A DNA stretch of 61,573 nt, taken from a virus. Its lineage: Duplodnaviria > Heunggongvirae > Uroviricota > Caudoviricetes. The stretch lies in the IMG/VR virus record IMGVR_UViG_2778261122_000001, positions 1-61,573 of that record. One strand, 5' to 3'. Below the pieces are notes generated by a model. The model was given only the letters and a program-made list of their open reading frames with translations, was not told where the DNA came from and did no database searches. Position numbers and translations under genes: made by a program. Each line of letters begins with the position of its first letter. The stretch's first letter is position 1. Shown piece after piece: positions 2,407-58,441 of the stretch.

Positions 2407-3105
2407 TTACTGCGAAAGTTTGTTAATGGAAAGGAAGCCGCCAAAGTTGCCGACGTTATTGCGGAACTTACAGCCACTCAGGCATTTGCTGCATTTATCC
2501 TTCGTGATATCGGACGTCGGCTGATCATATTCATCCGCGACCGCCGGACCGCTATAACCGCACTCATCGCCGCGATAGGTCCAGGTGCAGGTGTTGGCCA
2601 GCATGATACGTCCCGGAAAAACAGCGCCGTCCGTTTCCGTCGGCGTGGACAGTACAAAAGAGGCACTCACCGCGCTCAGTTCGCTGCACTGCTCAATGCG
2701 CCAACGGCTGATCACCTCCTGCTCCGGATCGGCGTCACTGTTTCCGTTGACGAAGTTCACCGCATCCAGAAAACGGGCGTAAACCTTACGCCGGACCACC
2801 GTTCCGCCGACCAGACTCTGCAGATCTTCCGCCATCCCGGTGACCATACCGTACAGGTTAGAAACCGTCAGCGTGGGGCGCGTACTGGTGCCTTTGCCAT
2901 TCAGTTCAAAACCACTCCCCTGAATGGGATACGGCTGATACTGTCGCCCCTGCCAGGTGACCGGCTCACCTTTTTCGTTCTGCTCATTACAGAAAAAATA
3001 ATGTTCTCCACCGACCTCTGTCAGGTCGATTTCCCAGAGCACCACGCTGGCCGACTGCTCCGCACGGGTGCATTCATTCAGTGTTTCCTGCCGGATATCC
3101 TGCAT
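2407..3105 (-). CDS. L: Minor tail protein L
   Basis: 232 aa, lambda gpL length and sequence; C-terminal Cys cluster. Confidence 0.9.
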   Translation of the reverse strand: MQDIRQETLNECTRAEQSASVVLWEIDLTEVGGEHYFFCNEQNEKGEPVTWQGRQYQPYPIQGSGFELNGKGTSTRPTLTVSNLYGMVTGMAEDLQSLVGGTVVRRKVYARFLDAVNFVNGNSDADPEQEVISRWRIEQCSELSAVSASFVLSTPTETDGAVFPGRIMLANTCTWTYRGDECGYSGPAVADEYDQPTSDITKDKCSKCLSGCKFRNNVGNFGGFLSINKLSQ

Positions 3106-17296: not shown

Positions 17297-17623
17297 TCAG
17301 GGACGTGACGGCGTAAAGATAAATTGTCTCTTCACTCCCTGACAGGGACGATTCTTTTCAAATCGCCATTTCGCCATGGCCTTCACCACTTCATCACGAA
17401 ACAAATTATGAGGCTCTGAGCGGAGAAAAACGATCCGTGTCACAGTCCCATCAGCACCAATATCGAACTTAACCTCAACCAGTCCCTTGATATAATTTGC
17501 TGCAGCATATTCCGGATATCGTGGATACACCGTCACTAATTGCCGGGGCTCATCAGCTTTTTGCTGCGAGCATCCCACTGCCAGGACAGATAACAGAAAA
17601 AGTAGTAAAAGGCGTCTTTTCAT
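17297..17623 (-). CDS. Lipoprotein with TonB C-terminal-like domain (lambda right-end envelope protein type)
   Basis: Start trimmed to MKRRLLLLFLLSVLAVGCSQQ lipobox; position between bor and cos. Confidence 0.5.
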   Translation of the reverse strand: MKRRLLLLFLLSVLAVGCSQQKADEPRQLVTVYPRYPEYAAANYIKGLVEVKFDIGADGTVTRIVFLRSEPHNLFRDEVVKAMAKWRFEKNRPCQGVKRQFIFTPSRP

Positions 17624-18105
17624 TTTTATTCCTACGGGTCTTATTCTGACAATATATCCTGTGTTCCAGACTGCCACATCACCACATCCTGTGCCATTAT
17701 CTGACTCACATTACATACATCGCATCGGGATACAGTAGTAGCACTTTCTGTAATACAGCTTCCGGTTTCTTCCACCATCGCACCGGGATAAACCCGCGAA
17801 TCATTAACGCGGTAAAAACTCGGTGTGCATCGTTTTTGATTATTCCCGCACACTCACGCAGAAGGAATTCCCCGTCGGGCTACGGTCATGGTTAATGCGG
17901 GAATACGGCGACGATACAGCGCAGCTAAAAGGGTAATGGACGGATAGACCGGTTTATTTCATTCCACAGGATTCTGAGTGTCCCCAACTTCCTCCAATAG
18001 TCTGAGCGTACACCTATATAGTTTTAATTTTCATCAATCCATTTAACTATCGTTTAATTGTTGTCACATAGGATTCTGCCGTTTTTAACAATGCAGGATA
18101 ATAAG

Positions 18106-18399
18106 ATGAAAAAAATGTTGTTTTCTGCCGCTCTGGCAATGCTTATTACAGGATGTGCTCAACAGACGTTTACTGTTGGAAACAAACCGACAGCAGTAAC
18201 ACCAAAGGAAACCATCACCCATCACTTCTTCGTTTCGGGAATTGGACAGGAGAAAACTGTTGATGCAGCCAAAATTTGTGGCAGCGCAGAAAATGTTGTT
18301 AAAACAGAAACCCAGCAAACATTCGTAAATGGATTGCTCGGTTTTATTACTTTAGGCATTTATACTCCGCTGGAAGCGCGTGTGTATTGCTCACAATAA
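18106..18399 (+). CDS. bor: Bor lipoprotein (serum-resistance lysogenic conversion protein)
   Basis: Start trimmed to MKKMLFSAALAMLITGCAQQTFTV; matches remembered lambda Bor; opposite strand to late genes as in lambda. Confidence 0.85.
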   Translation: MKKMLFSAALAMLITGCAQQTFTVGNKPTAVTPKETITHHFFVSGIGQEKTVDAAKICGSAENVVKTETQQTFVNGLLGFITLGIYTPLEARVYCSQ

Positions 18400-18430: not shown

Positions 18431-18907
18431 CTATCTGCACTGCTCATTAATATACTTCTGGGTTCCTTCCAGTTGTTTTTGCATAGTGATCAGCCTCTCT
18501 CTGAGGGTGAAATAATCCCGTTCAGCGGTGTCTGCCAGTCGGGGGGAGGCTGCATTATCCACGCCGGAGGCGGTGGTGGCTTCACGCACTGACTGACAGA
18601 CTGCTTTGATGTGCAACCGACGACGACCAGCGGCAACATCATCACGCAGAGCATCATTTTCAGCTTTCGCATCAGCTAACTCCTTCGTGTATTTAGCATC
18701 GAGTGCATCAGCAGCACGCTGGCGCTGCTGCATGTCAGTAATGGTGGCGGTCGCCTGCTTCAGCTCACTGACTTTTTTATCACGCTGTTCTTTATAGGCG
18801 ATGGCGTTATCACGGTAATGATTGACCGCCCACGACAGGCAGACGATGATGCAGATAACCAGAGCATAAATAATCGCGGCGACTCTGCTCACTGATCTAT
18901 CCCCCAA
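18431..18907 (-). CDS. Rz: Spanin inner-membrane subunit Rz
   Basis: N-terminal TM segment, coiled coil, C-terminus matches lambda Rz. Confidence 0.85.
18490..18672 (-). CDS. Rz1: Spanin outer-membrane lipoprotein Rz1, embedded in Rz
   Basis: 60 aa, lipobox VVVGC, proline-rich, embedded +1 frame. Confidence 0.8.
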
Positions 18908-19422
18908 CAGGCTAATGCGCTTTCCTGGTCACGACGAATAACCTGCCCATAGCAGTTATTTGAACGTATGCGGCAATCGCGCCCACCATCTTTTATCCAC
19001 CAACGAATCGCCTCGCATGCACCCTTACGATCACCGGCATTCAGCCGCTTATAAAACGTCGACGGGAAACACTTACCGGGGCCAATGTTATAGGGACAAA
19101 ATGACGCTATACCCGCTTTCTGTGGTTCGGTCAGAGGTACTTTAATATTGCGCTCCACCCATGCCAGCGCCTTATCACGTTCAATAGCGTTAACCTGGTC
19201 GCATTTTTCCTTCGACAGCTTCATTCCCGGTATGACGGGCTTACCATCCACCATTGTGGCACCACGACAGATGGTCCATATACCGGAACCATCGCGGTAT
19301 GCCGTAGTGTGGTTACCCTCTTTTTCATCCAGAAACTGGTCAAGTATTTGAGGAGCAGACGCGCCTGCAGCAATCAGCGCCAGAACAGCAGCTGACAGGC
19401 CGTATTTGATTTTTGCGCTCAT
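18889..19422 (-). CDS. R: Endolysin, T4-lysozyme-type with N-terminal signal-anchor (SAR-like)
   Basis: 177 aa; hydrophobic N-terminal segment then lysozyme domain; resembles Qin RrrQ. Confidence 0.8.
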
Positions 19423-19477
19423 GGATATTTATCAGGATGCTACCAATGAAAGATACTGGAAAGCCAACTGCAAAAAG

Positions 19478-19792
19478 CTAACAACCCGTAATCGAGTTAT
19501 CAGAACTGTTAATTTTTATGGTATACCGCACCTTTGAACAGGGGCGCGTTTCTGGCAACAGCTCGTCCCCTTCACATAACCCGGCAGCAACATCCAGGAA
19601 GACCTGTCTGATGCTCCTTCTGGCTGCTGCCTCATAAAACTCCAGCGCGGCACCTTCAACACGGTCCAGCGAGATGTCCAGGTCAAAAATTTCACCGTCA
19701 AAGCGTTTTTTGTCCCGTAACGCTAAAGTTACCGTAACTTTATTCTCAAAATTGCGGATCCCTTTCACAATCAGTTCATAGTTTTGAGTCAT
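19478..19792 (-). CDS. Hypothetical protein between holin and endolysin
   Basis: 104-aa ORF tightly packed between S and R; family not confidently recognised. Confidence 0.5.
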   Translation of the reverse strand: MTQNYELIVKGIRNFENKVTVTLALRDKKRFDGEIFDLDISLDRVEGAALEFYEAAARRSIRQVFLDVAAGLCEGDELLPETRPCSKVRYTIKINSSDNSITGC

Positions 19793-19796
19793 TGAA

Positions 19797-20012
19797 TTAC
19801 TCTTCCCGTGCAGCCTTACGCTTGTCTTCTTTAATCTTGAAATAAAGGTTTGTCAGATACGTCAGCAAGCCAAATACCAGACTACCCAGCACACCTATTG
19901 CCGCCCACTGTGAGGGCGTGACTTTATCGAGCAACTGTAAAAACCAGTACCCGGCACTACCTGCTGAGGTGCCATAGGCGACACCCGTTGTTAACTTATC
20001 CATGGATTTCAT
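19797..20012 (-). CDS. S: Class II holin (phage 21 S-type pinholin)
   Basis: 71 aa, two TM segments, MKSMDK dual-start motif, charged C-terminus. Confidence 0.85.
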
Positions 20013-20078
20013 AACCCCACCTCGCAGATGCGGGTGCTGTGTAATGGAAATAAAAAGGCCACCTGCGTGGCCACCAGA

Positions 20079-21131
20079 TTATTTCCCCACCAGCTCGTTT
20101 ATCTCTTTCACTGTCTGGTTAAACCGCTCTGACTCAAGCTCAACACCTAAGGCCCGACGCCCCAGCGCCATTGCTGCTTTTATTGTGGAACCGGATCCCA
20201 TAAAAAAATCAGCAACCAGATCACCAGGTCGACTACTGGCATTGATTATTTGCCTGAGCATATCCGCCGGTTTCTCACACGGATGTTTACCCGGGTAGAA
20301 CTGAACGGGTTTATGCATCCAGACATCGGTATAAGGCACGGAGACTGATACGGAGAAATAGCGCCGGAGAGATTTAAACTCATCCAGCAATTCAGAATAT
20401 TTGCGATTCAGTGAATCATAAGATGCCACCAGCTGGTGGTGTGGTTGTTCCAGTTGTTGTTCCTGAAACTTCTCTGCCGCTATACGGGAAAACAGTGCCT
20501 GTAACTTCCGATAGTCAGCCTCATTCGGCAACTGCCACTGACTGGCACCAAACCAGTGGGAAACCATATTTTTCTTACCTGTGGCTTCGGCAATTTGTTT
20601 TGCCGTTATACCCAGTTCGGCACGAGCATCCCTGAAATACGATATCAGCGGTGCCATTATGTGCTGTTTGAGTTCCCTTTCTTTTGCCGCATAGCTGTCA
20701 CTTTTGCCGCGATATGGCCCCTGGTAATGTTCAGCAAACAGAACGCGCTCTGTGGCAGGAAAATATGCGCGCAGACTTTCTTTATTACACCCATTCCAAC
20801 GTCCGGACGGCTTCGCCCAGATGATATGGTTAAGCACGTTGAAACGTTCACGCATCATAATCTCAATATCAGATGCCAGGCGATGCCCACAGAACAGGTA
20901 AAGGCTTCCGGCAGGTTTCAATACCCGCCAGAACTGGGCCAGACAGTGGTCCAGCCACTTAAGGTAATCTTCGTCCCCTTTCCACTGATTGTCCCAACCG
21001 TTGGGTTTCACCTTGAAGTAAGGCGGATCGGTAACAATCAGGTCAATGGAATCATCAGGCAGGGACTGAATAAAATGCAGGCAATCAGCGTTGATTAAAT
21101 CAACACTGTTTATTTTTACAGTATTTTTCAT
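20079..21131 (-). CDS. DNA methyltransferase (amino-MTase, DPPY motif)
   Basis: DLIVTDPPY near N-terminus and FFMGSGST AdoMet motif near C-terminus (motif IV before motif I). Confidence 0.8.
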   Translation of the reverse strand: MKNTVKINSVDLINADCLHFIQSLPDDSIDLIVTDPPYFKVKPNGWDNQWKGDEDYLKWLDHCLAQFWRVLKPAGSLYLFCGHRLASDIEIMMRERFNVLNHIIWAKPSGRWNGCNKESLRAYFPATERVLFAEHYQGPYRGKSDSYAAKERELKQHIMAPLISYFRDARAELGITAKQIAEATGKKNMVSHWFGASQWQLPNEADYRKLQALFSRIAAEKFQEQQLEQPHHQLVASYDSLNRKYSELLDEFKSLRRYFSVSVSVPYTDVWMHKPVQFYPGKHPCEKPADMLRQIINASSRPGDLVADFFMGSGSTIKAAMALGRRALGVELESERFNQTVKEINELVGK

Positions 21132-21281: not shown

Positions 21282-21509
21282 TTACTGGCAGCGTCTGAAT
21301 TTATTCCCGTACCCGCCGTTATCCTTCGCCAGACCCGCCAGAACTAACTGAGTCAGTATTAACTGGCACCGGGCTTCGCTTACTCCGGTAGTTCTCGTCA
21401 TCATGCGTGGCGTTACCCACTTGTCAGCAGGTAAGAAATGAAGGACTGCGGCGGCGGTTTCTGTCATATCTTGCTGTTTTAGCATGTCTTTTTCCCTTCT
21501 GGTTAACAT
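21282..21509 (-). CDS. Hypothetical small protein
   Basis: 75-aa ORF upstream of the MTase; no recognised family. Confidence 0.3.
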   Translation of the reverse strand: MLTRREKDMLKQQDMTETAAAVLHFLPADKWVTPRMMTRTTGVSEARCQLILTQLVLAGLAKDNGGYGNKFRRCQ

Positions 21510-21755
21510 GACATACCAATAACTCTTGTCTAAAAAGCCAGCAAGATAAAAAGTCAGTATTCACGACCACCAGCGTGTTTACTGTACTGCACCAAGTTTA
21601 CAGGTACAAAAAAACCGCTCAGCGGCGGGTTTAAGTTGTGTGGCGAAGTAACCATTCTTAACAGCATATTTGATTTTTTACGATTGTAAACGGTTGATTA
21701 TTCATCTCCAATAAAAATAATTGTGTGGGTATGCCCTTAACAATGGATAAGAAAC

Positions 21756-22202
21756 ATGAATAAAATGACTGTACTATTACTTAGCGCAACTATCATTTCA
21801 GGTTGTACTTCTTCCGTACCATTGATAAAGAAAACTCAATCAGGAAAACCTGAGGGGGTTTATCAAAATACGACAAAAGATAAAGTCAAAGATGCCCTTG
21901 TGAATTACTGCAATAGTAGAGGGTTGATAATTTACAACGCGGATAACAGCAGTGTTATATGTGGTAAAGAACTGGAAGGCGGCTCTGCTGTTTTCGGACA
22001 AATGTTAATCGGCAATGCCTATTCAACAACCCCGGTATCAAAAGTCAGATTTACTATCGCTCAAGTTAATAACGATACAAAAGTGTGGGCCGATATGTGG
22101 ATGGAAACTCAAATGGCAATGGGGCAAGTACAACAAATGGCTATAACAGACAACGCAAGCAAAAACACTATCCAACAACGTCTTGATGAGTTAAAACCTT
22201 AA
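21756..22202 (+). CDS. Lipoprotein of unknown function (insertion gene)
   Basis: MNKMTVLLLSATIISGCTSS signal peptide with lipobox; lies in AT-rich insertion. Confidence 0.6.
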   Translation: MNKMTVLLLSATIISGCTSSVPLIKKTQSGKPEGVYQNTTKDKVKDALVNYCNSRGLIIYNADNSSVICGKELEGGSAVFGQMLIGNAYSTTPVSKVRFTIAQVNNDTKVWADMWMETQMAMGQVQQMAITDNASKNTIQQRLDELKP

Positions 22203-22429
22203 GTCAATTAATTACATAAAATGGGGAGAGAAAATCGACTCCCCACACATTAAACTGATTTAATTACCTGTACTAGCTATAACTCCAACTGACAATTTGA
22301 GTAACCAGAACGAAATCAAGTTTGACAGCCCGCTTTGAGAGAAAAGCAAAAAATACGCTGCTGTACGGCTGATAAAAGAAACTAAGAATGCAAATTACCA
22401 GCCTGAAGACCATCGTTATGCCAGTACCA

Positions 22430-23692
22430 CTATATATCCCAGATCTCGCCATTATAAAGATGCTCGCTAATCTTTGGTGGATTTTTCTTAACATTAGGGT
22501 GACTCGCCAAAATGAGTCTTAATGTCCTGATAGCAACATAGGCCTTTATAACAATATCCCTTTGTTGTTTGAAATACTCCTGATTGAAGTTATTGTTATC
22601 GATGGCATGTGCTGGTTTTTGTCTAAGTTGCCTTACCTTTCTAAAGGTGTCAATCATATCTTTAACTGGCGCAGGATCTGTTGGCTGGAAATATTTATCA
22701 AGCCATGACTCAAGTATTTGTATAGTGCCTTTAGGCCTTACGACTATTTTCCCATCCTCGCGCTCCTCTTCAATTTCAAGCTCCACATCATCCTCGAAGA
22801 ATTTCTTATTAAGATTGTCGGACATCATTTTATCCAACAAAAGCATGAAATTATTAAATTCTGAACGAGTTGGTCGCAAAAGAAACCCGAACTCTTTAGG
22901 CATGTCATCGCTGTAATCTTTTCTAAAAAGTTCAGCCTTTCCTATTAACACGCTCATTTTATTAATTATTTTAAGTTCTTCCGTAAATGCACTAAAAATA
23001 GAAATTTTAGTCCCCCAAGCTCCTAATATGCTTGCAGCATAGTAATCGGGATGCAACTTTATATCTCCTTTTACTTCTTTCGCTGCCCAAACATTTTGGT
23101 GTTCAGGACTGAGATCACTCAGGTATCTCAAGAAAACTGCAACATATCTATTTAGACTGTCATCATAAGCAAACCCAAATGTTTTAAGCAATATTTGATC
23201 GTGTTCAGGAATATTGTCTGATTCATAATACTCATCCGTAATAGATATTTCCCCATGTATAAAGTCTGTAAAGTATGAATAACGTGGATCATTTCGGTAG
23301 TATTCCAAAACAGACAAATCAAAAGTTCTATAGTCAAATTGTCCCGCACCTCTTGCTAGCTCCATTTCATATGGTGACTTACTATAAGCAGAAAGCTTAC
23401 TAGATTTGGCTAGCATATTTTCATGGGGATATAAGCATATGTAATCTAAACTCTCTGAATCATCGAAATTCTTAAGGATATTATCCTTGGGGATTTTTGA
23501 AAACGCTTTAATATGAGGGTTATCCCCAAAACAAGCAGTTAAAATATCATCTTCGATTCCTTTTCTAACCAAAACTTTGAAAGTTTCGCTTTTGATATCG
23601 AAAAGACCATCTAACTTATAAATAGGCAATCCATTAAAATCACCTGATGAAAAATATTGTTCCTCGACTATTTCATATATTTCTTTAATCAT
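22430..23692 (-). CDS. Hypothetical 420-aa protein in AT-rich insertion downstream of Q
   Basis: Long uninterrupted ORF with AT-rich codon usage unlike flanking genes; no motif recognised. Confidence 0.6.
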   Translation of the reverse strand: MIKEIYEIVEEQYFSSGDFNGLPIYKLDGLFDIKSETFKVLVRKGIEDDILTACFGDNPHIKAFSKIPKDNILKNFDDSESLDYICLYPHENMLAKSSKLSAYSKSPYEMELARGAGQFDYRTFDLSVLEYYRNDPRYSYFTDFIHGEISITDEYYESDNIPEHDQILLKTFGFAYDDSLNRYVAVFLRYLSDLSPEHQNVWAAKEVKGDIKLHPDYYAASILGAWGTKISIFSAFTEELKIINKMSVLIGKAELFRKDYSDDMPKEFGFLLRPTRSEFNNFMLLLDKMMSDNLNKKFFEDDVELEIEEEREDGKIVVRPKGTIQILESWLDKYFQPTDPAPVKDMIDTFRKVRQLRQKPAHAIDNNNFNQEYFKQQRDIVIKAYVAIRTLRLILASHPNVKKNPPKISEHLYNGEIWDI

Positions 23693-24093
23693 CTCACAAT
23701 CCCAATATATGGTTGTTTACAATTTGTTTAAATAGTCACCAGCCAAGCTAAGCGATTGTATATTCATTACGTTCGAAACTATTTATTGTGTAACAATATC
23801 AGCTAAGTTACTGGCTATAGTATATGAGTTTAAAATTCTGCGCTCTCATAAGCATACTATATATAGTTATACCCCGAGTGATTGTGCTAAGCAACTGATT
23901 GCGCCCTACTAGATTTTATTTTTATGGTAAAATGTAGACCTCACTTCTAGCTTGGAGTTATTCCCTATTTATTAAGTACTACGTCCATATATGGCATAGT
24001 GCTACCTGTCAGCTCAGGTTTGGCACTGTGCCATAATAGCTGTTTCAGCTCACGTCTGAACAAATATAAATAACCCCCTCACTTAGAAGTGTT

Positions 24094-24459
24094 CTAACGG
24101 TCCATTTCTAGCTCAATTTCTAACATCATTAACATGCCATCAACTACACCTTCAGCCTTTTGCAATAAACGCCCAACCCAGCAATCAGAACGCCCATGTT
24201 TACGGGCAAGCGCCATAAACGTCATACCACCTACATAATAATCCACTAATAAATCGTGCAAATCGCTGTTGTTCTTTTTCAGGCGAGCCATGCACCCACA
24301 AATGATCATCGCGTCATCGTCACAACATTGCGGGCGGGATTTTACTTTTGAAGGGATTAGTCCTTTAAATCCTGCAGCAATAGACGACCAGGTGACATCC
24401 TCGTGATTATTTGCCACCCATGCACCCCAACGTTCAAGAACCATTTGAATATCACGCAT
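24094..24459 (-). CDS. Q: Late-gene antiterminator Q, phage 82/QuuD type
   Basis: Start trimmed to [14 protein letters not shown]; Cys-rich core as in remembered DLP12 QuuD. Confidence 0.8.
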
Positions 24460-24476
24460 CAACTTTCTCCACAAAA

Positions 24477-26994: not shown

Positions 26995-27245
26995 TAAGCC
27001 CCCACGTAATTCCCTGACAGATACCACTCTTCACCCGATGCAGCGCGCTTGCTGCTTTTCCGTAAGCACCGCTCACGATGCGCCAGAAAATTGTTTCGTT
27101 CTGGCTGGGAGTGGCTTTCACGGAATGCCTCCATCCACACCGTTGCAGCACGACGGTATAAACCCCTGGACTCCAGTTCTTCAGCATGGCGGGTCAGGCA
27201 CAAAATCACCCGGGGGTCGTTAGTGCCGACATAGAAATTGCGCAC
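26994..27245 (-). CDS. Hypothetical protein
   Basis: 83-aa ORF, stop/start overlap with neighbours. Confidence 0.35.
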   Translation of the reverse strand: MRNFYVGTNDPRVILCLTRHAEELESRGLYRRAATVWMEAFRESHSQPERNNFLAHRERCLRKSSKRAASGEEWYLSGNYVGA

Positions 27246-27481
27246 AGGTCTGGTTTCACAAACTGGTTCCGCTCCTGCGATATCTCAGCCTGGCGCGGGA
27301 AATGTCTGCGTGTATCCTCTTCACAACGGTGAGCCACACGCCCACTCTGACGTAACTTGCTTGCTGACTGCAGAACTCGCTGCCGTGAGTAACCTGCAAA
27401 AGCATCCGCAATGTCTCCGGAAGTACACCCCGGATGGGCTTCAATGAATTTCTGAACGTCATTCAAAAGGCTCATGATCAC
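27206..27481 (-). CDS. Hypothetical protein
   Basis: 91-aa ORF in operon context. Confidence 0.35.
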   Translation of the reverse strand: MIMSLLNDVQKFIEAHPGCTSGDIADAFAGYSRQRVLQSASKLRQSGRVAHRCEEDTRRHFPRQAEISQERNQFVKPDLCAISMSALTTPG

Positions 27482-34727: not shown

Positions 34728-35024
34728 TTAACGGATCAACAGCCAGACCAGCAGACACACCACCACTGGCACAGCAAAATCCAACAAACTTCCCACATCC
34801 CACACGCGTGGATCAAAACCGCCCCACCACGGCATATTCATACGCTTGCCATGCCCGAACATTTCTATCCAGCGATATTCTGCCTGGGTGTGTTCTCGGG
34901 ATATAAAAAACACACACCCTATTACAGCCCCAGTTATCGGATCATTAAATAAACTCAAAAACAGAAACTGTAGCGATAATGATATTAGCACATGAATGAA
35001 ATGAGATATGTCCATACTTACCAA
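34728..35024 (-). CDS. Hypothetical small membrane protein downstream of tailspike
   Basis: 98-aa ORF with about three hydrophobic segments. Confidence 0.35.
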
Positions 35025-36676
35025 CTCAAAAGAATATTTACATCACCTACGCTAATAGGATTTGGAGTGACATTTTGAAATGTTACCCTGACGATATTAT
35101 CGGAAACAGCAATAGCATCTGAAATTATACCTATTGGGAGATCATTCAACACTGTCATTTGTAGAGGAACTTCATTAGATATGATATATCCGGTCAATGT
35201 TCTTTGCATTGAGAACCTGCCACTTGCTGAAATCGTGCCAACATTCAACGTTGATTTTACTTTCTTTCCTGAATATGTAACACCATTCAAATCTATATGT
35301 GAGTTATTTATTAATGTCAACGCAGAATATCCTGAAAAATCACTATTAGCCCCGGCCTGCCTTACTACAGAGAATTTATCAGCTCGTATTGCAAAGTCAC
35401 CAGTTGCTTCCGATGCATTAATGTTATTGGTAACAACAACACCTCCATCAACACAGTTAATAGCATATGTTGCATTTCCTTTTATCGTTATGTTTCTTAA
35501 ACTTAAATAAGATGCAAACTGGCATGTGGCAAAAGCAATTGCTCCATCTGATAGATACCCATCTGAAAATTCAACAGACGAAGAATACCTTGATCCTATA
35601 CACGATTGAGTTCTCGGTTTAAAAATAGATCCGCCTTTAATATAACAATCCGCCGCATGCTCAACCTTAAGAGAGTCTTCCCCTGAATTGTAAGAAGTGA
35701 ATTCTGTGCCCCTCACGCTTGCACTGTACACACATTCAAGGGAAATATTAGCATTTGATATATGAACCCCATTAACCCCAAACTGAGATCCAGAGCCAGA
35801 AACAAGAACTCCACAAACAGAGCCTCCATTTACAATCAAATTGTTTGCATCCCAAACTACGCAACTACCACATTGTGAATCAGGGTAGTATCCACCTCCG
35901 ATAATGAGTCCGTAATCACCATCTGTTTCAACAGCAACATTTTTTATGCTGTATATATTTGATCTAAATTGTATTCCTTTTGTTGTTTTTATTATGGAAT
36001 TTATTGGTTTTGCCACAACCCCGTTAACTGGGCCTGAAATTATACCATTGTGACTCATATCCAATGTTAAAACATTTCCATCCTTGGAAATTATCATCGC
36101 TCCACATGAAATGTCTCTCCTGCCAGAAAGTATACAATATTTACCAACATGAAAATTATCTGCATTCTGAACAGAAACTTTAAATATACCAGTCAACACA
36201 TCATAAGAAACATCATATACATTAACAGGACTATAATCCACACCCAATATATTCAGAGGAATATTATCAAACTCATCATAATGTGAATAACCATCAGGAA
36301 TGTGAATATACTGCCCGTATTCTATCTGTGATCTAAGCTGATCGGGATCGTACTTCAGCACATTAGGAAAATAGAACTGCTGTGATCCATATGCATCGTA
36401 CACAGCCATAGAATGCCCTTGTACAGTAACGAACTTAGCAATCTGTCCGTTATATACTGGATACCCTGCGGCATTGATGACGATTGGCTGTGCAACAGGA
36501 ACGTGAGAACCATCTTCGTTTTCTACATAAACCTGAATCTGGTTTTCTGGATTTACCGGGTCAGTATCAATTTTACCGATATAAATTTTGCCATTGGCTA
36601 CGGCTTTAAAAGAACGCGCCATAGTGAAGAGTTGCGATGGCATCGATACGATCACATTGGCTGTAATGTCTGTCAT
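35018..36676 (-). CDS. Tailspike protein with P22 gp9-type N-terminal head-binding domain
   Basis: First ~110 aa ([43 protein letters not shown]) match remembered P22 gp9; remainder divergent. Confidence 0.85.
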
Positions 36677-38578: not shown

Positions 38579-39178
38579 GTGATTGAGATAGGCGTTATGG
38601 CCATCCTGAATCAAGAGCCAGGAAAAATTGAAAACGTTTTTTCTGACATATCAACATCTATCGAGCGTTCAATTTCAGACTTTGATCGCAGTCATAGCGG
38701 CTCTTTGTCTAAAAAACAGGCTTCTGAAGCTCTTAGCAAGATCTACTGCGTTATGTCACCTGTAGAGGAAGTTTGCAAAAAGTACATTACATTCATTGAC
38801 ATATTAAGTAATGGTACGGAAGAAGATATTTCCTCACTTGATATTCAACATGACGATGTAGATATGTTGAACGATCAGATATCTAAGCTTGATTATGGTA
38901 TCGCGAAACTGTTGTATACCTTCTTCATCGCTGAGAACAGCGATGCGTGGAAGCCCCATATGTCAACTCTTACAACAATGAAAAACCACTCAATAAATAC
39001 TTTTATAGAATACAAAAGGCTAACTATGGGGCTTGTGACGCTAGCAATGCAGCACATACCACTATCATATGCTGAACCTGAAGAGTTCACTGAAGAAGAG
39101 TTGGCTTCATTCAAGAAATCAGTTGAAGATTCACATAAAAGATTTGGCATGGAAGCACCAAAATGGAAAACCGCATAA
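38579..39178 (+). CDS. Hypothetical protein X1 (first gene of cluster downstream of mnt)
   Basis: 199-aa ORF, GTG start, AT-rich, no TM segment, no recognised motif. Confidence 0.55.
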   Translation: MIEIGVMAILNQEPGKIENVFSDISTSIERSISDFDRSHSGSLSKKQASEALSKIYCVMSPVEEVCKKYITFIDILSNGTEEDISSLDIQHDDVDMLNDQISKLDYGIAKLLYTFFIAENSDAWKPHMSTLTTMKNHSINTFIEYKRLTMGLVTLAMQHIPLSYAEPEEFTEEELASFKKSVEDSHKRFGMEAPKWKTA

Positions 39179-39582
39179 GCATTGTTGTAGATGCAGCGGC
39201 TGGACCATTAGAACAATACTTTGCGAAGGCTCTTGCAAACTACAAAAACAGAGGCACCGTTTCAGCTTATCTTGGTAAAATTGGTGGGTTTGAGAGAAAC
39301 CATCACGCCGTCTTATCGGGAATTTACAAGTCGCACATCAGGATCCCTGGAGTAGATGATCCTTGGTTAAAAACAACGCCAATACATCGTAGAGTTAGCG
39401 ATAACTTTTTGATATTTGCGGTACACAACACATATCCAATTCATATCCAGATCATTGCTATCATTAAACCTGATGGTCATGAGAAGGTAAAAAAACTATT
39501 GCCAGCCATCATTGATATAACTGAAAAAAGATTCCAATCTCTAAATGAGAGGGAGCTTAACTCGTTGATTTCATACAAATAA
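39163..39582 (+). CDS. Hypothetical protein X2
   Basis: 139-aa ORF overlapping X1 by 16 nt; no recognised family. Confidence 0.55.
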   Translation: MENRISIVVDAAAGPLEQYFAKALANYKNRGTVSAYLGKIGGFERNHHAVLSGIYKSHIRIPGVDDPWLKTTPIHRRVSDNFLIFAVHNTYPIHIQIIAIIKPDGHEKVKKLLPAIIDITEKRFQSLNERELNSLISYK

Positions 39583-50027: not shown

Positions 50028-52226
50028 TTACTGCTGTGGTTGTTGCTGAGTTGATTTTTGCAGGATGCTGCTGATGTCCATGCGCTGCGCATGACCCTGT
50101 GCCTGACTTTTCAGGACAAGCTCTGCATCAGCACGGGCATTGTCTCCTTGCTGTTGCTGGAACTGTCCGAGCAGTTTCAGAGCCTCGCGGATATCAGATT
50201 TCTGCTGACTATCGGCAGATGCGAGTATTTTCACAACATTTGCCGCTGCAACCTGAGCATCAGTCTGTGCCTGGAATGCTTTAACCTGAATGGCTGCCTG
50301 TTCGTTCTGCGCTTTCTGCAATTCAGCCTGACCAGCAAGAAGCTGACCTTGCGCAGCAACCATAGCCGGATCTGGCTGACTGGCCTGTTGTTGTTTCGCC
50401 TGCTCAACCATCTGCTGTTCTTCTGGTGTTCTCGGCTTGATAACTCCAGACAGAAGCAACTGATTGCGGTTGTATTCTTTAAGGTCGTCCATCCCTTCAC
50501 CGTCCATATTGTCGAGAATCATCGACGATACAAGGTCGTGCTTCGGCGTTCCTGGTGGGATAAGTGCCAGCATGGAAAGTAACGACTTAACCGTTGCATC
50601 ACGGCGAGTAGCGAACGACTGACCAACATCGACAGTCACTTCATAGTTACCCTGCGAAAGGTCGTTAAGCGCGATAACCTGCCCTGTCTGACGGTCAACC
50701 ACTTCACCAGTCATCAGCGCCACGTCATCGCTGCCGTCCTCATTAACGATACGCATCGGCGTATCACTGCCATAGACCTCACGCGCCATAGAAAGCCACA
50801 CGACGCCAGCGCGGCGCATGGATTTAGCCATGTTGTCCATGTAGATATAGGACTGCGTGTCCATCCGGTTAAAGATGCTATCAACGGTATCGGTGGCGAC
50901 GTTGCTCGGCATGTTCTCAAGCTGCGACGCACCTGTAATTTGCTGAATAGCCGTTCCGGTGTACTGCAATAGCCCGGCAAGAGCAGGAGGCATTTGTGTC
51001 GGAGGTGTATAACTGCTGACCTGAGCCTGCGCAGTAATATCTCCGTTTTTGTTTTTCAGACTTACCATCGGCAGGAACGCCGGGCGCTTTTTGTTGCGCT
51101 CCGCCCAATTATTGGCGAGAGGACCAGGAATCATGTCAACATCAACTACAGGAATGCCATCACCGCCAGCCTGAGTAGCGTTATCTGCAATCATGGAAAC
51201 CATCAGGTTCTCAAGACGCTGTGCATCCATCGCTTTTGCTGCGTGGCCTTCGATTCGCTCCTGATTATCAACAAATGAGCGACGCCCATATACCGGGATG
51301 AGAGGAATATGTTCGCCCGGAATACGCTTCGGTTCTTCCAGCCATTCAGCGCCAGACAGAAGACCGCAATAAACGCGGCGTTTCTTCACCGTTCGCTCGC
51401 CAATCAGTTCGAATGCACCATCGGTCAGCTCGTCGACAATATCTTTGATTTGCTCTTCATCATAGATTGCTGTTTCTCCGCTGACAGGATTGCGCCACGC
51501 CGTGAGCTTCACCTTCTCTATGCGAACTTCGTAGTAGCGTCCAACATAGATGGCATCGGGCGTTGACCAGTCATACTGAGCACCAGTGTCATCACGAGAA
51601 AGGCTTGCCGCGATGGAATCAGGATATTCAGTCTCGAACGCTTTAGGCGTCATGGAGAACATTTCCATAGCCCACATAGCATCAGAGCGGTCATATTGCT
51701 TGCTGTCCTGATCGAAGAAGACGCATGTCGCTGGGTCGTAAACCGGGAGAAGGCTGATGCGGCGCTGCTCGTTACTCGGATCCATTTCATCTTCGTAATC
51801 GGCACACATGCGGAAACAACCGAATCCGCCCGTTACGGCATCATCAAATGCGTTATCACACGCTTCGCCACCGGATGTTTCCTGATAGTCAGCGCGGAAT
51901 TTGCCGTTCATCTTTTCGGCTAACGCTTCCGATGCCTTGTCGTCCTTCGGCCTGAATTTAACGCTGATGCGATTCTGTCGATACTCGCCAATGATGCGAT
52001 CACATTCACGGGCAATCTTATTCAGTTCAAAGCGCGGGTAATGCTCAAACCTGCCTTCATCAAATGAGTAACCAGCGTTTGTGCTGCCTTCCCACTGTGC
52101 GCCGGATACCCGGACGAAACGTTGAGCCTCAATAATCTGCTCACGCATATCCTGCGTTGCTGACCAGGCATTATCAAAGTTGCACAGCACCTTGCGATGC
52201 CAGTCAGTCATCTTTTTTTCTTCCAT
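50028..52226 (-). CDS. Portal protein (P22 gp1 type)
   Basis: 732 aa; C-terminal Gln-rich helical barrel region. Confidence 0.85.
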   Translation of the reverse strand: MEEKKMTDWHRKVLCNFDNAWSATQDMREQIIEAQRFVRVSGAQWEGSTNAGYSFDEGRFEHYPRFELNKIARECDRIIGEYRQNRISVKFRPKDDKASEALAEKMNGKFRADYQETSGGEACDNAFDDAVTGGFGCFRMCADYEDEMDPSNEQRRISLLPVYDPATCVFFDQDSKQYDRSDAMWAMEMFSMTPKAFETEYPDSIAASLSRDDTGAQYDWSTPDAIYVGRYYEVRIEKVKLTAWRNPVSGETAIYDEEQIKDIVDELTDGAFELIGERTVKKRRVYCGLLSGAEWLEEPKRIPGEHIPLIPVYGRRSFVDNQERIEGHAAKAMDAQRLENLMVSMIADNATQAGGDGIPVVDVDMIPGPLANNWAERNKKRPAFLPMVSLKNKNGDITAQAQVSSYTPPTQMPPALAGLLQYTGTAIQQITGASQLENMPSNVATDTVDSIFNRMDTQSYIYMDNMAKSMRRAGVVWLSMAREVYGSDTPMRIVNEDGSDDVALMTGEVVDRQTGQVIALNDLSQGNYEVTVDVGQSFATRRDATVKSLLSMLALIPPGTPKHDLVSSMILDNMDGEGMDDLKEYNRNQLLLSGVIKPRTPEEQQMVEQAKQQQASQPDPAMVAAQGQLLAGQAELQKAQNEQAAIQVKAFQAQTDAQVAAANVVKILASADSQQKSDIREALKLLGQFQQQQGDNARADAELVLKSQAQGHAQRMDISSILQKSTQQQPQQ

Positions 52227-57054: not shown

Positions 57055-57546
57055 CTATCCCATACTGGAGAATTCACCATGATATTTTATCCTGGCATTT
57101 TCCATTGCCTTTCTAGCCTCCTCGATATCGTCAAAACACCCTACATGAATCCTTTTACCATTAACTCTAATTCTTCCAACCCACTTGTTTGCAGCAGAAT
57201 TAAAAGTCACCCCCTTCACACCAGATGAATTGTTTTTCCTCATCTTGCTGTTCCATGAGTTTTGAGTGTTAGTAACAACACGAAGATTGGCTATCCGGTT
57301 ATCAGACCTATCACCATTAATATGGTCAATAACATCGGTTGGCCAATCATTGTAAACCATCAGCCATGCAATTCTATGGACATATAGCCGCATTCCATAA
57401 AGTTTTACCTGCAGATATCCATTTGTTTTATAGCCAACAACAGCGCCATAGATAAATCTAGAGGACCGAGGTGGATTCTTCCATGTAAGAATTCCAGTAT
57501 CTGGATTGTAATTAAAAAGTCTCAATGCATCTTCACGTTTTAACAT
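57055..57546 (-). CDS. HNH homing endonuclease with AP2-like C-terminal DNA-binding domain
   Basis: YVHRIAW...DHINGDRSDNRIANLR HNH motif; C-terminal GVTFNSAANKWVGRIRVNGKRIHVGCF AP2-like. Confidence 0.8.
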   Translation of the reverse strand: MLKREDALRLFNYNPDTGILTWKNPPRSSRFIYGAVVGYKTNGYLQVKLYGMRLYVHRIAWLMVYNDWPTDVIDHINGDRSDNRIANLRVVTNTQNSWNSKMRKNNSSGVKGVTFNSAANKWVGRIRVNGKRIHVGCFDDIEEARKAMENARIKYHGEFSSMG

Positions 57547-57817: not shown

Positions 57818-58441
57818 CTAACGTGTGACTGCATTCAAAATATTGTCTGCAATTGACTCTTCCTTGTGGCATTGCACCACCAGAGCGTCATACAGCGGCT
57901 TAACAGTGCGTGACCAGGTGGGTTGGGTAAGGTTTGGGATTAGCATCGTTACAGCGCGATATGCGGCGCTTGCTGGCATTCTTGAATAGCCGACACCTTT
58001 GCATCTTCCGCACTCTTTCTCAACAACTCTCCCCCACTGCTCTGTTTTGGCTATATCAACCGCACGGCCTGTACCGTGGCAATCTCTGCATCTTGCGCCC
58101 GGCGTCGCGGCACTACGGCAATAATCCGCATAAGCGAATGTTGCGAGCACTTGCAGTACCTTTGCCTTAGTATTTCCTTCAAGCTTTGCCACACCACGGT
58201 ATTTCCCCGATACATTGTGTGCAAATTGCATCAGATAGTTGATAGCCTTTTGTTTGTCGTTCTGGCTGAGTTCGTGCTTACCACAGAATGCAGCCATTCC
58301 GAATCCGGCTTGTGATTGCGCCATCCCCATAGCAGCCATCACATCAGTACCGGAAAGAGAGTCAGAAGCCGTAGCCCGTGGTGAGTCGCTCATCATCGGG
58401 CTTTTTGGCGAGTGAAATTTAGCTACGCTTTCGAGTCTCAT
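57818..58441 (-). CDS. Q: Late antiterminator Q (lambda type)
   Basis: 207 aa, near-identical to remembered lambda Q. Confidence 0.9.
   Translation of the reverse strand: MRLESVAKFHSPKSPMMSDSPRATASDSLSGTDVMAAMGMAQSQAGFGMAAFCGKHELSQNDKQKAINYLMQFAHNVSGKYRGVAKLEGNTKAKVLQVLATFAYADYCRSAATPGARCRDCHGTGRAVDIAKTEQWGRVVEKECGRCKGVGYSRMPASAAYRAVTMLIPNLTQPTWSRTVKPLYDALVVQCHKEESIADNILNAVTR

Follow-up and report, generated by a model that had tools for sequence, protein, structure and literature searches.

An M.EcoGII-type adenine methyltransferase gene in the predicted Q-dependent late operon of a lambdoid prophage

M.EcoGII is a prophage-encoded methyltransferase that modifies adenine in any sequence context, in double- and single-stranded DNA and, more weakly, in RNA (PMC5778455). 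Lysogens carrying M.EcoGI, M.EcoGII or their O111 homologues gave no methylation signal; expression of M.EcoGI or M.EcoGII slows growth and harms the cells, and the methylation they introduce blocks many restriction enzymes in vitro. The EcoSal review groups both enzymes with Mom as protective modifiers that are silent in the lysogen, and the hypothesis that such enzymes protect progeny DNA has been published for the family (Murray et al. and the EcoSal review; PMC5778455, PMC12707154). M.EcoGII is now a widely used reagent, yet we found no direct demonstration of its role in the phage life cycle in the literature. Here, we describe a member of this family in a 61,573-nucleotide stretch of viral DNA (Caudoviricetes; IMG/VR record IMGVR_UViG_2778261122_000001, positions 1 to 61,573), referred to below as the window, in which a 350-amino-acid methyltransferase is encoded between an antiterminator gene of the Q type and a holin gene. 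Published work already covers the M.EcoGII family, its location in prophages, its silence in lysogens and the anti-restriction hypothesis. To this we add a little: this allele is assigned to the non-specific clade, boundaries are given for the module that carries it, and a likely late promoter cassette, parted from Q by cargo genes, is described.

The methyltransferase gene and its family

The gene under study is the following (coordinates are those of the window throughout).
20079..21131, minus strand: M.EcoGII-family beta-class N6-adenine methyltransferase gene, 350 amino acids (assigned from the open reading frame, Pfam, motifs and identity to M.EcoGII)

The initial annotation had described a 350-amino-acid amino-methyltransferase with DPPY ahead of FxGxGST, and this description is borne out by an intact open reading frame (ORF) with DPPY at residues 35-38 and FMGSGST at residues 310-316. 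The start codon is the first ATG to follow an in-frame TGA, which lies two codons ahead of it, and the resulting N-terminus aligns with residue 1 of M.EcoGII. The order of motif IV, target recognition domain and motif I is that of the beta class. Pfam PF01555 (N6_N4_Mtase) matches residues 29-341 with an E-value of 2e-42, and the best Type II methyltransferase model of PADLOC, MTase_II, matches at 2.7e-151. The best matches among solved structures are beta-class adenine methyltransferases such as M.RsrI, M1.MboII and CcrM, the likeness being limited to the two halves of the catalytic domain. In the whole window, the amino-methyltransferase motif pair occurs in this single frame. The gene is thus intact and keeps its catalytic and S-adenosylmethionine (SAM)-binding motifs. 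Compared with the homologues in SfV, mEp460 and Stx2a_WGPS2, the ratio of nonsynonymous to synonymous substitution rates (dN/dS) is 0.08-0.09, and a value of about 0.08 indicates purifying selection and a gene that is being maintained.

Aligned with M.EcoGII over its full length with one or two single-residue gaps, the protein shows 79.8% identity; the M.EcoGII reference was taken from Supplementary Table S1 of PMC11551740 (the SUPREM paper) by optical character recognition, so that this and the following identity figures may be off by <1%. By domain, identity reaches 89% in the catalytic half at the N-terminus, 77% in the helical target recognition domain (positions 160-237, 18 of whose 78 residues differ) and 68-70% in the interdomain linkers, both of which align without insertions or deletions. 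The protein shares 88% of its residues with Anc291, a reconstructed ancestor, and 69% with SUPREM, pairwise identity being the only measure used for clade placement, with no tree. Anc291 and SUPREM are reported to be largely non-sequence-specific on RNA and active on DNA (PMC11551740). Because M.EcoGII and SUPREM share just 69% identity with each other, the window protein falls inside the span of enzymes that have been tested as non-specific. Every sequence-level test of membership placed the protein in the M.EcoGII family, and judged by its sequence the enzyme is an M.EcoGII-type, SAM-dependent beta-class N6-adenine methyltransferase. By its position within this clade, the allele probably also methylates adenine in any context.

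The gene has close relatives in many phages and prophages. Near-identical copies (97-99.5% nucleotide identity) are present in phages SfV (orf48), cdtI, mEp460 and Ayreon, with 98-99% protein identity to SfV orf48 and mEp460 gp53, and a matching gene was found in 1254 of the 5426 complete Escherichia coli genomes searched. More distant homologues, in Serratia phage OS31 (p25, 63% identity) and in Vibrio phages VHML (ORF17) and vB_VpaM_MAR (gp58; 50% identity), lie directly upstream of holin/endolysin genes. A site close to the lysis genes, on their upstream side, is thus customary for the family.

No restriction endonuclease partner was found for the enzyme. The window corresponds to contig NNWE01000030.1 (E. 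coli assembly GCA_002486805.1), whose gene calls and Pfam matches cover 16.4-46.7 kb of the window, and the intervals 1-16 kb and 46.7-61.5 kb were judged from related loci with matching gene order and ORF lengths. Neither the genes called in 16.4-46.7 kb nor the loci collinear with the remainder include a restriction endonuclease, as the initial annotation had stated for the window. The nuclease-related domains present belong to RusA, DUF968/HNHc_6, the terminase nuclease and an HNH_3/AP2 gene of the other prophage in the window, none of them a restriction enzyme, and no cognate endonuclease gene adjoins the methyltransferase as it would in a Type II restriction-modification system. The label of orphan DNA methyltransferase therefore stands as far as the absence of an endonuclease goes, but the enzyme is not a typical site-specific orphan, since it belongs with the M.EcoGII clade at ~80% identity. 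A cognate endonuclease, which the initial annotation named as the finding that would overturn its claim, has no meaning here if methylation is non-specific, because no cognate restriction site could then be defined.

A second methyltransferase was also considered. In E. coli E3, E. coli AR436 and SfV, a Dam-like 'phage N-6-adenine-methyltransferase' gene lies in the early region, between PerC-like and LexA-like genes. This gene is absent from the window, where an 89-amino-acid ORF takes its place in the interval 27028-27480, so that the M.EcoGII-type gene is the sole DNA methyltransferase gene there.

Late module, candidate promoter and cargo sites

The features of the late region, in the direction of transcription, are as follows.
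24094..24474, minus strand: antiterminator Q gene of the PF06530 type, a distant relative of Q21 (Pfam, E=2.1e-51)
21609..21691, minus strand: candidate late promoter cassette, 83 bp, pR'/tR'-like (promoter scan and conservation)
21282..21485, minus strand: conserved 67-amino-acid ORF (phrog_331), first gene after the terminator (PHROG, E=4.6e-26)
20057..20072, minus strand: terminator-like hairpin between the methyltransferase and holin genes, GGCCAC-GCAG-GUGGCC with UUUUUAUUU behind it (scan hit)
19797-20012, minus strand: S21-type holin (PF04971; Pfam)
19478-19792, minus strand: DUF1327/YdfR (PF07041; Pfam)
18889-19422, minus strand: lysozyme (PF00959; Pfam)
18431-18907, minus strand: Rz (PF03245; Pfam)
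18490-18672, minus strand: Rz1 (PF06085), embedded in Rz (Pfam)

The methyltransferase gene lies between Q (24094-24474) and the holin gene (19797-20012), all three on the minus strand. With the start of the holin gene 66 bp further downstream (20012), the initial annotation was right to place the gene just upstream of the holin on the late strand; the whole lysis cassette spans 18431..20012 on that strand. Comparison with SfV, mEp460, E. coli E3, E. coli AR436 and Stx2a_WGPS2 defined a module of conserved order, consisting of a hairpin with a U-run, the 67-amino-acid ORF, the methyltransferase gene, a second terminator and then the holin gene. The Q genes flanking this module differ among these phages, as do the holins in some of them. 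The 67-amino-acid ORF also precedes the methyltransferase gene in SfV (orf47), mEp460 (gp52), AR436, E3 and Stx2a_WGPS2 (gp28). It occurs in 55 phage records, in one of which it is annotated as a TrmB-family regulator, and searches of PDB and Pfam gave no informative match for it. The second terminator hairpin (20072-20057) folds at -15.7 kcal/mol (z=-1.9) and is stronger than the first; its equivalent in SfV was annotated by the depositors as a putative rho-independent terminator.

Directly upstream of the module, the 83-bp element contains a candidate promoter with a -35 hexamer TTTACA (21690-21685), a 16-nt spacer and a -10 hexamer TATGCT (21668-21663), then a conserved leader GTTAAGA(A/G)TGGTTACTTCGCCACACAACTTAAA and a short hairpin at 21626-21614 with a U-run, similar to tR'. 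The element is found at 84% identity in ~40 lambdoid phages. Its neighbours in phages 434 and PA-2 are an antisense porin gene on one side and the S holin gene on the other, and in the alignment with both phages the two hexamers, the leader and the hairpin match column for column. As it stands directly ahead of the holin in 434 and PA-2, we read it as pR'/tR', and it is probably the pR'/Q-loading/tR' cassette for the Q type of the window. This reading fits the general architecture described for Q21 (bioRxiv 10.1101/651190).

The Q protein of the window has 126 amino acids and matches the Q21 structures 6P18/6JNX at E=7e-9; its allele is present at 98.3% in E. coli AR436 and also in many other genomes. 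For this Q type, a pR' immediately behind the Q gene was considered and rejected, because homology with genomes of the same Q allele stops 25 bp past the stop codon. In AR436, the interval between Q and the antisense gene that follows measures just 85 bp and has a hairpin at its end. The arrangement in SfV and mEp460 is different: a Q gene of 250 amino acids is directly followed by TTGCAT-17-TAAGAT, then by AACGAT and then by the same terminator as in the window. We take this AACGAT to resemble the lambda pause element. In the window, the late promoter is parted from Q by ~2.4 kb of inserted cargo, a point that was absent from the initial annotation.

The promoter scan gave no consensus promoter between the 67-amino-acid ORF and the methyltransferase gene. 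The position of the latter, behind a terminator and with no consensus promoter of its own, is consistent with silence in the lysogen. The 67-amino-acid ORF and the methyltransferase gene are probably the first two genes of a Q-dependent late transcript and, relative to 434, would represent an insertion between tR' and S. The Q-dependent late operon proposed in the initial annotation thus holds as regards the late-strand place between Q and holin, downstream of a conserved cassette, with Q-dependence itself as a likely consequence of that arrangement.

The features between Q and the late promoter are the following.
22269..24068, minus strand: low-GC insertion of 1800 bp, outside the methyltransferase module, absent from the otherwise collinear AR436
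22430..23692, minus strand: 420-amino-acid ORF inside this insertion (ORF list)
21756..22202, plus strand: 148-amino-acid ORF (phrog_3152), antisense between Q and the late promoter (PHROG, E=1e-104)

The 1800-bp insertion has a GC content of 0.34-0.37 and is bounded by an imperfect 7-bp direct repeat, GGT(T/A)ATT. Its 420-amino-acid ORF had no match in the 5426 complete E. coli genomes by megablast or in phages by tblastn. Homologues occur in Pseudomonas and Psychromonas, where they have no methyltransferase neighbour, and a confident structure model of the protein matched no nuclease fold. The 148-amino-acid ORF is found at the same position in AR436 and in 186 genomes; judged by eye, its N-terminus resembles a signal peptide or lipoprotein leader with a Cys. 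In 434 and PA-2, the corresponding slot is taken by the porin gene nmpC/lc; E3 and Stx2a_WGPS2 have other antisense genes there.

This group of phages thus has two cargo entry sites, one between Q and the late promoter (the 148-amino-acid antisense ORF and the 420-amino-acid gene) and the other, which holds the methyltransferase module and in Stx phages the tRNA-stx genes, between the late terminator and the holin. At the second site, Stx2a_WGPS2 has a 93%-identical methyltransferase gene ahead of its tRNA-stx2 genes, which are known to be downstream of pR'. The methyltransferase gene in this slot is complete in Stx2c phages and in some of the Stx2a phages, WGPS2 among them. The 933W-like Stx2a phages retain only a 3' remnant of ~50 codons (residues 315-348, 82-85% identity) between Q and the tRNA-stx2 genes, as in phage PA30 (locus positions 2462-2614) and in >100 Stx2a phage records. 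In mEp460, two copies of the AACCCGCCNCTGAGCGGGTTTTTT terminator (at ~2325-2350 and 3001-3030 of the locus) flank the inserted gene gp51, and this duplication suggests that the terminator sequence serves as a recombination joint for the exchange of cargo between Q and S. Downstream of the lysis genes lie a Bor/Iss-family lipoprotein gene (18058-18399, plus strand) and a gene for a TonB_C-domain protein (17297-17677, minus strand), both typical lysogenic-conversion cargo of this prophage group.

Proposed role and competing explanations

A course of events can be proposed from this arrangement. In the lysogen, transcripts begun at the candidate late promoter (21690-21663) would end at the terminator at 21626-21614, so that the toxic enzyme would not be made. 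Upon induction, Q would load onto RNA polymerase at the late promoter and permit read-through of both terminators (21626-21614 and 20072-20057). The 67-amino-acid ORF, the methyltransferase gene and the lysis genes would then be co-transcribed, along with the structural genes on the excised circular genome. The enzyme would deposit N6-methyladenine (m6A) broadly on replicating phage DNA ahead of packaging, and partial m6A would leave the progeny partly shielded, in the next host, from the many Type I, II and III restriction systems that are blocked by adenine methylation. We give this explanation as a whole (an M.EcoGII-family enzyme, Q-dependent late expression and progeny DNA cloaked by m6A) a probability of about 0.72, in which the non-specific activity of this allele, the Q-dependence of expression and the protective role are the presumed parts.

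Several points weigh against this explanation. The promoter scan of the region was at chance level, with 13 sites against 11.8 expected, and the first terminator hairpin is short, weak and indistinguishable from shuffled sequence (z=0.16); it is therefore positional conservation, and only that, which carries the assignment of pR'/tR'. Transformation of non-restricting E. coli is 10^4-10^5-fold less efficient when the plasmid DNA carries 80% m6dA, and Type IV enzymes that depend on m6A exist. Heavy methylation may therefore be a liability, and levels in vivo would have to be partial. In the literature, we found no demonstration that the M.EcoGII family protects against restriction in a phage infection, and for induction, phage DNA methylation and protection our search returned no in vivo evidence for this family. 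The slight uncertainty that optical character recognition brings to the identity figures counts on the same side.

Among the other explanations, it is unlikely that the enzyme, although active, has relaxed or site-specific recognition and shields only against a subset of restriction systems. Such recognition would fit the ~20% of residues that differ from M.EcoGII, those in the target recognition domain included, and M.PflMI, the closest characterised outgroup, is site-specific with a similar predicted overall fold; but both linkers align to M.EcoGII without insertions or deletions, and the charged linker is reported to be absent from M.PflMI. We regard as quite unlikely that the main role lies outside restriction, with broad m6A on host and phage DNA, or on RNA, acting in host shut-off, in the control of phage gene expression or packaging, or in the timing of lysis. 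In lambdoid, Serratia and VHML-type phages alike the gene is tightly linked with the lysis cassette, and this speaks for a role of this kind, as do the in vitro activity of M.EcoGII on single-stranded DNA, RNA and DNA:RNA hybrids, the slowed growth upon its expression and the poor establishment of heavily methylated DNA in new cells. On the other hand, the RNA activity of M.EcoGII is ~100-fold below its DNA activity (Table S3, PMC11551740), and many lambdoid phages do without the gene: in 434 and PA-2 the holin follows directly after the terminator, and 933W-like phages have the remnant only. The gene is therefore dispensable for the lytic programme. A narrower form of this idea, which strikes us as decidedly unlikely, treats the 67-amino-acid ORF and the methyltransferase gene as a regulated late-phase module, in which the small protein, possibly of winged-helix type, would restrain or direct the enzyme, and m6A on host DNA or late RNAs would aid host shut-off or lysis timing; it draws on the co-conservation of the two genes and the published promiscuity of the enzyme in vitro, and on nothing further that is positive.

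It is very improbable that the gene is a relic in decay, left in a cryptic prophage and never expressed. M.EcoGII itself has been described as lying on a cryptic prophage and not being expressed, and 933W-like phages have no more than the short 3' remnant; against this stand the full-length ORF with its intact catalytic and SAM-binding motifs, the dN/dS of ~0.08, the near-identical copies in the sequenced phages SfV, mEp460, cdtI and Ayreon, and a surrounding prophage in which Q and the lysis, repressor, integrase and lambda-type structural genes are retained. Finally, the notion that the methyltransferase is half of a restriction-modification or other two-gene defence system, with the adjacent 420-amino-acid protein as effector, is effectively refuted. 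That ORF, 1.3 kb upstream and encoded by the same strand, is without an assigned function, but the methyltransferase module occurs in the 1254 E. coli genomes and in many phages without it, and the gene belongs to a separate stretch of inserted low-GC DNA, 1.8 kb long, on the upstream side of the late promoter. No methyltransferase gene neighbours its homologues in Pseudomonas and Psychromonas, its model lacks a nuclease fold, and a non-specific adenine methyltransferase would be unable to define a cognate restriction site. Overall, progeny protection by a late-expressed M.EcoGII-type enzyme is the explanation that we prefer, in agreement with the initial annotation and with the published hypothesis, and an apparently intact lambdoid prophage with a single gene of this type behind a definable late promoter would offer a clean system for this hypothesis.

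Remainder of the window and comparison with known systems

The prophage that carries the module has a lambdoid layout, with lambda-type structural genes at 1-16 kb and, extending to ~34.3 kb, an early region with the integrase. In tandem with it, at ~35000-61573, is a second prophage, of P22-like type. The latter includes a tailspike head-binding domain protein (35018-36676), a portal (50028-52226) and a lambda-type Q (57818-58441), and between its Q and holin genes lies a homing-endonuclease-like gene of the HNH_3/AP2 type (57055-57546). At 39163-39582, near Arc/Mnt-like genes, is a gene of the YafO toxin family.

Of the described systems, M.EcoGII and M.EcoGI of E. coli O104:H4 C227-11 (Murray et al. 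2018, PMC5778455) are close to the enzyme of the window in having 349-350 amino acids, the order DPPY, target recognition domain, FxGxG, a prophage location and no endonuclease partner, and a 93%-identical relative occupies an equivalent site after Q and a small ORF. The window allele is set apart from M.EcoGII by ~70 substitutions; it belongs to the SfV/mEp460/cdtI sub-lineage and is nearer to Anc291 (88%) than to M.EcoGII (~80%). Within this sub-lineage, the loci of SfV orf48, mEp460 gp53 and the cdtI DNA methylase have a flanking terminator, a small ORF and a downstream terminator that all equal those of the window; they differ in their Q (250 amino acids), which has its own promoter, and in SfV also in the holin. 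The products of these three genes are annotated by homology alone. VHML, MAR and OS31, although similar in gene position, are phages of other types (VHML-like myovirus; Hendrixvirinae) and lack the 67-amino-acid partner ORF.

M.PflMI (CCANNNNNTGG) is the closest site-specific relative of the clade and resembles it in predicted fold, including a helical target recognition domain; it differs in its 27% identity to M.EcoGII, in the reported absence of the charged interdomain linker and in its restriction-modification context. Mom of phage Mu is a functional analogue only. Like the M.EcoGII-type enzymes, it is an adenine modifier that is expressed late, silent in the lysogen, toxic when expressed and broadly active against restriction, but it is an unrelated protein with a different chemistry, its modification being an acetamido group rather than methylation.
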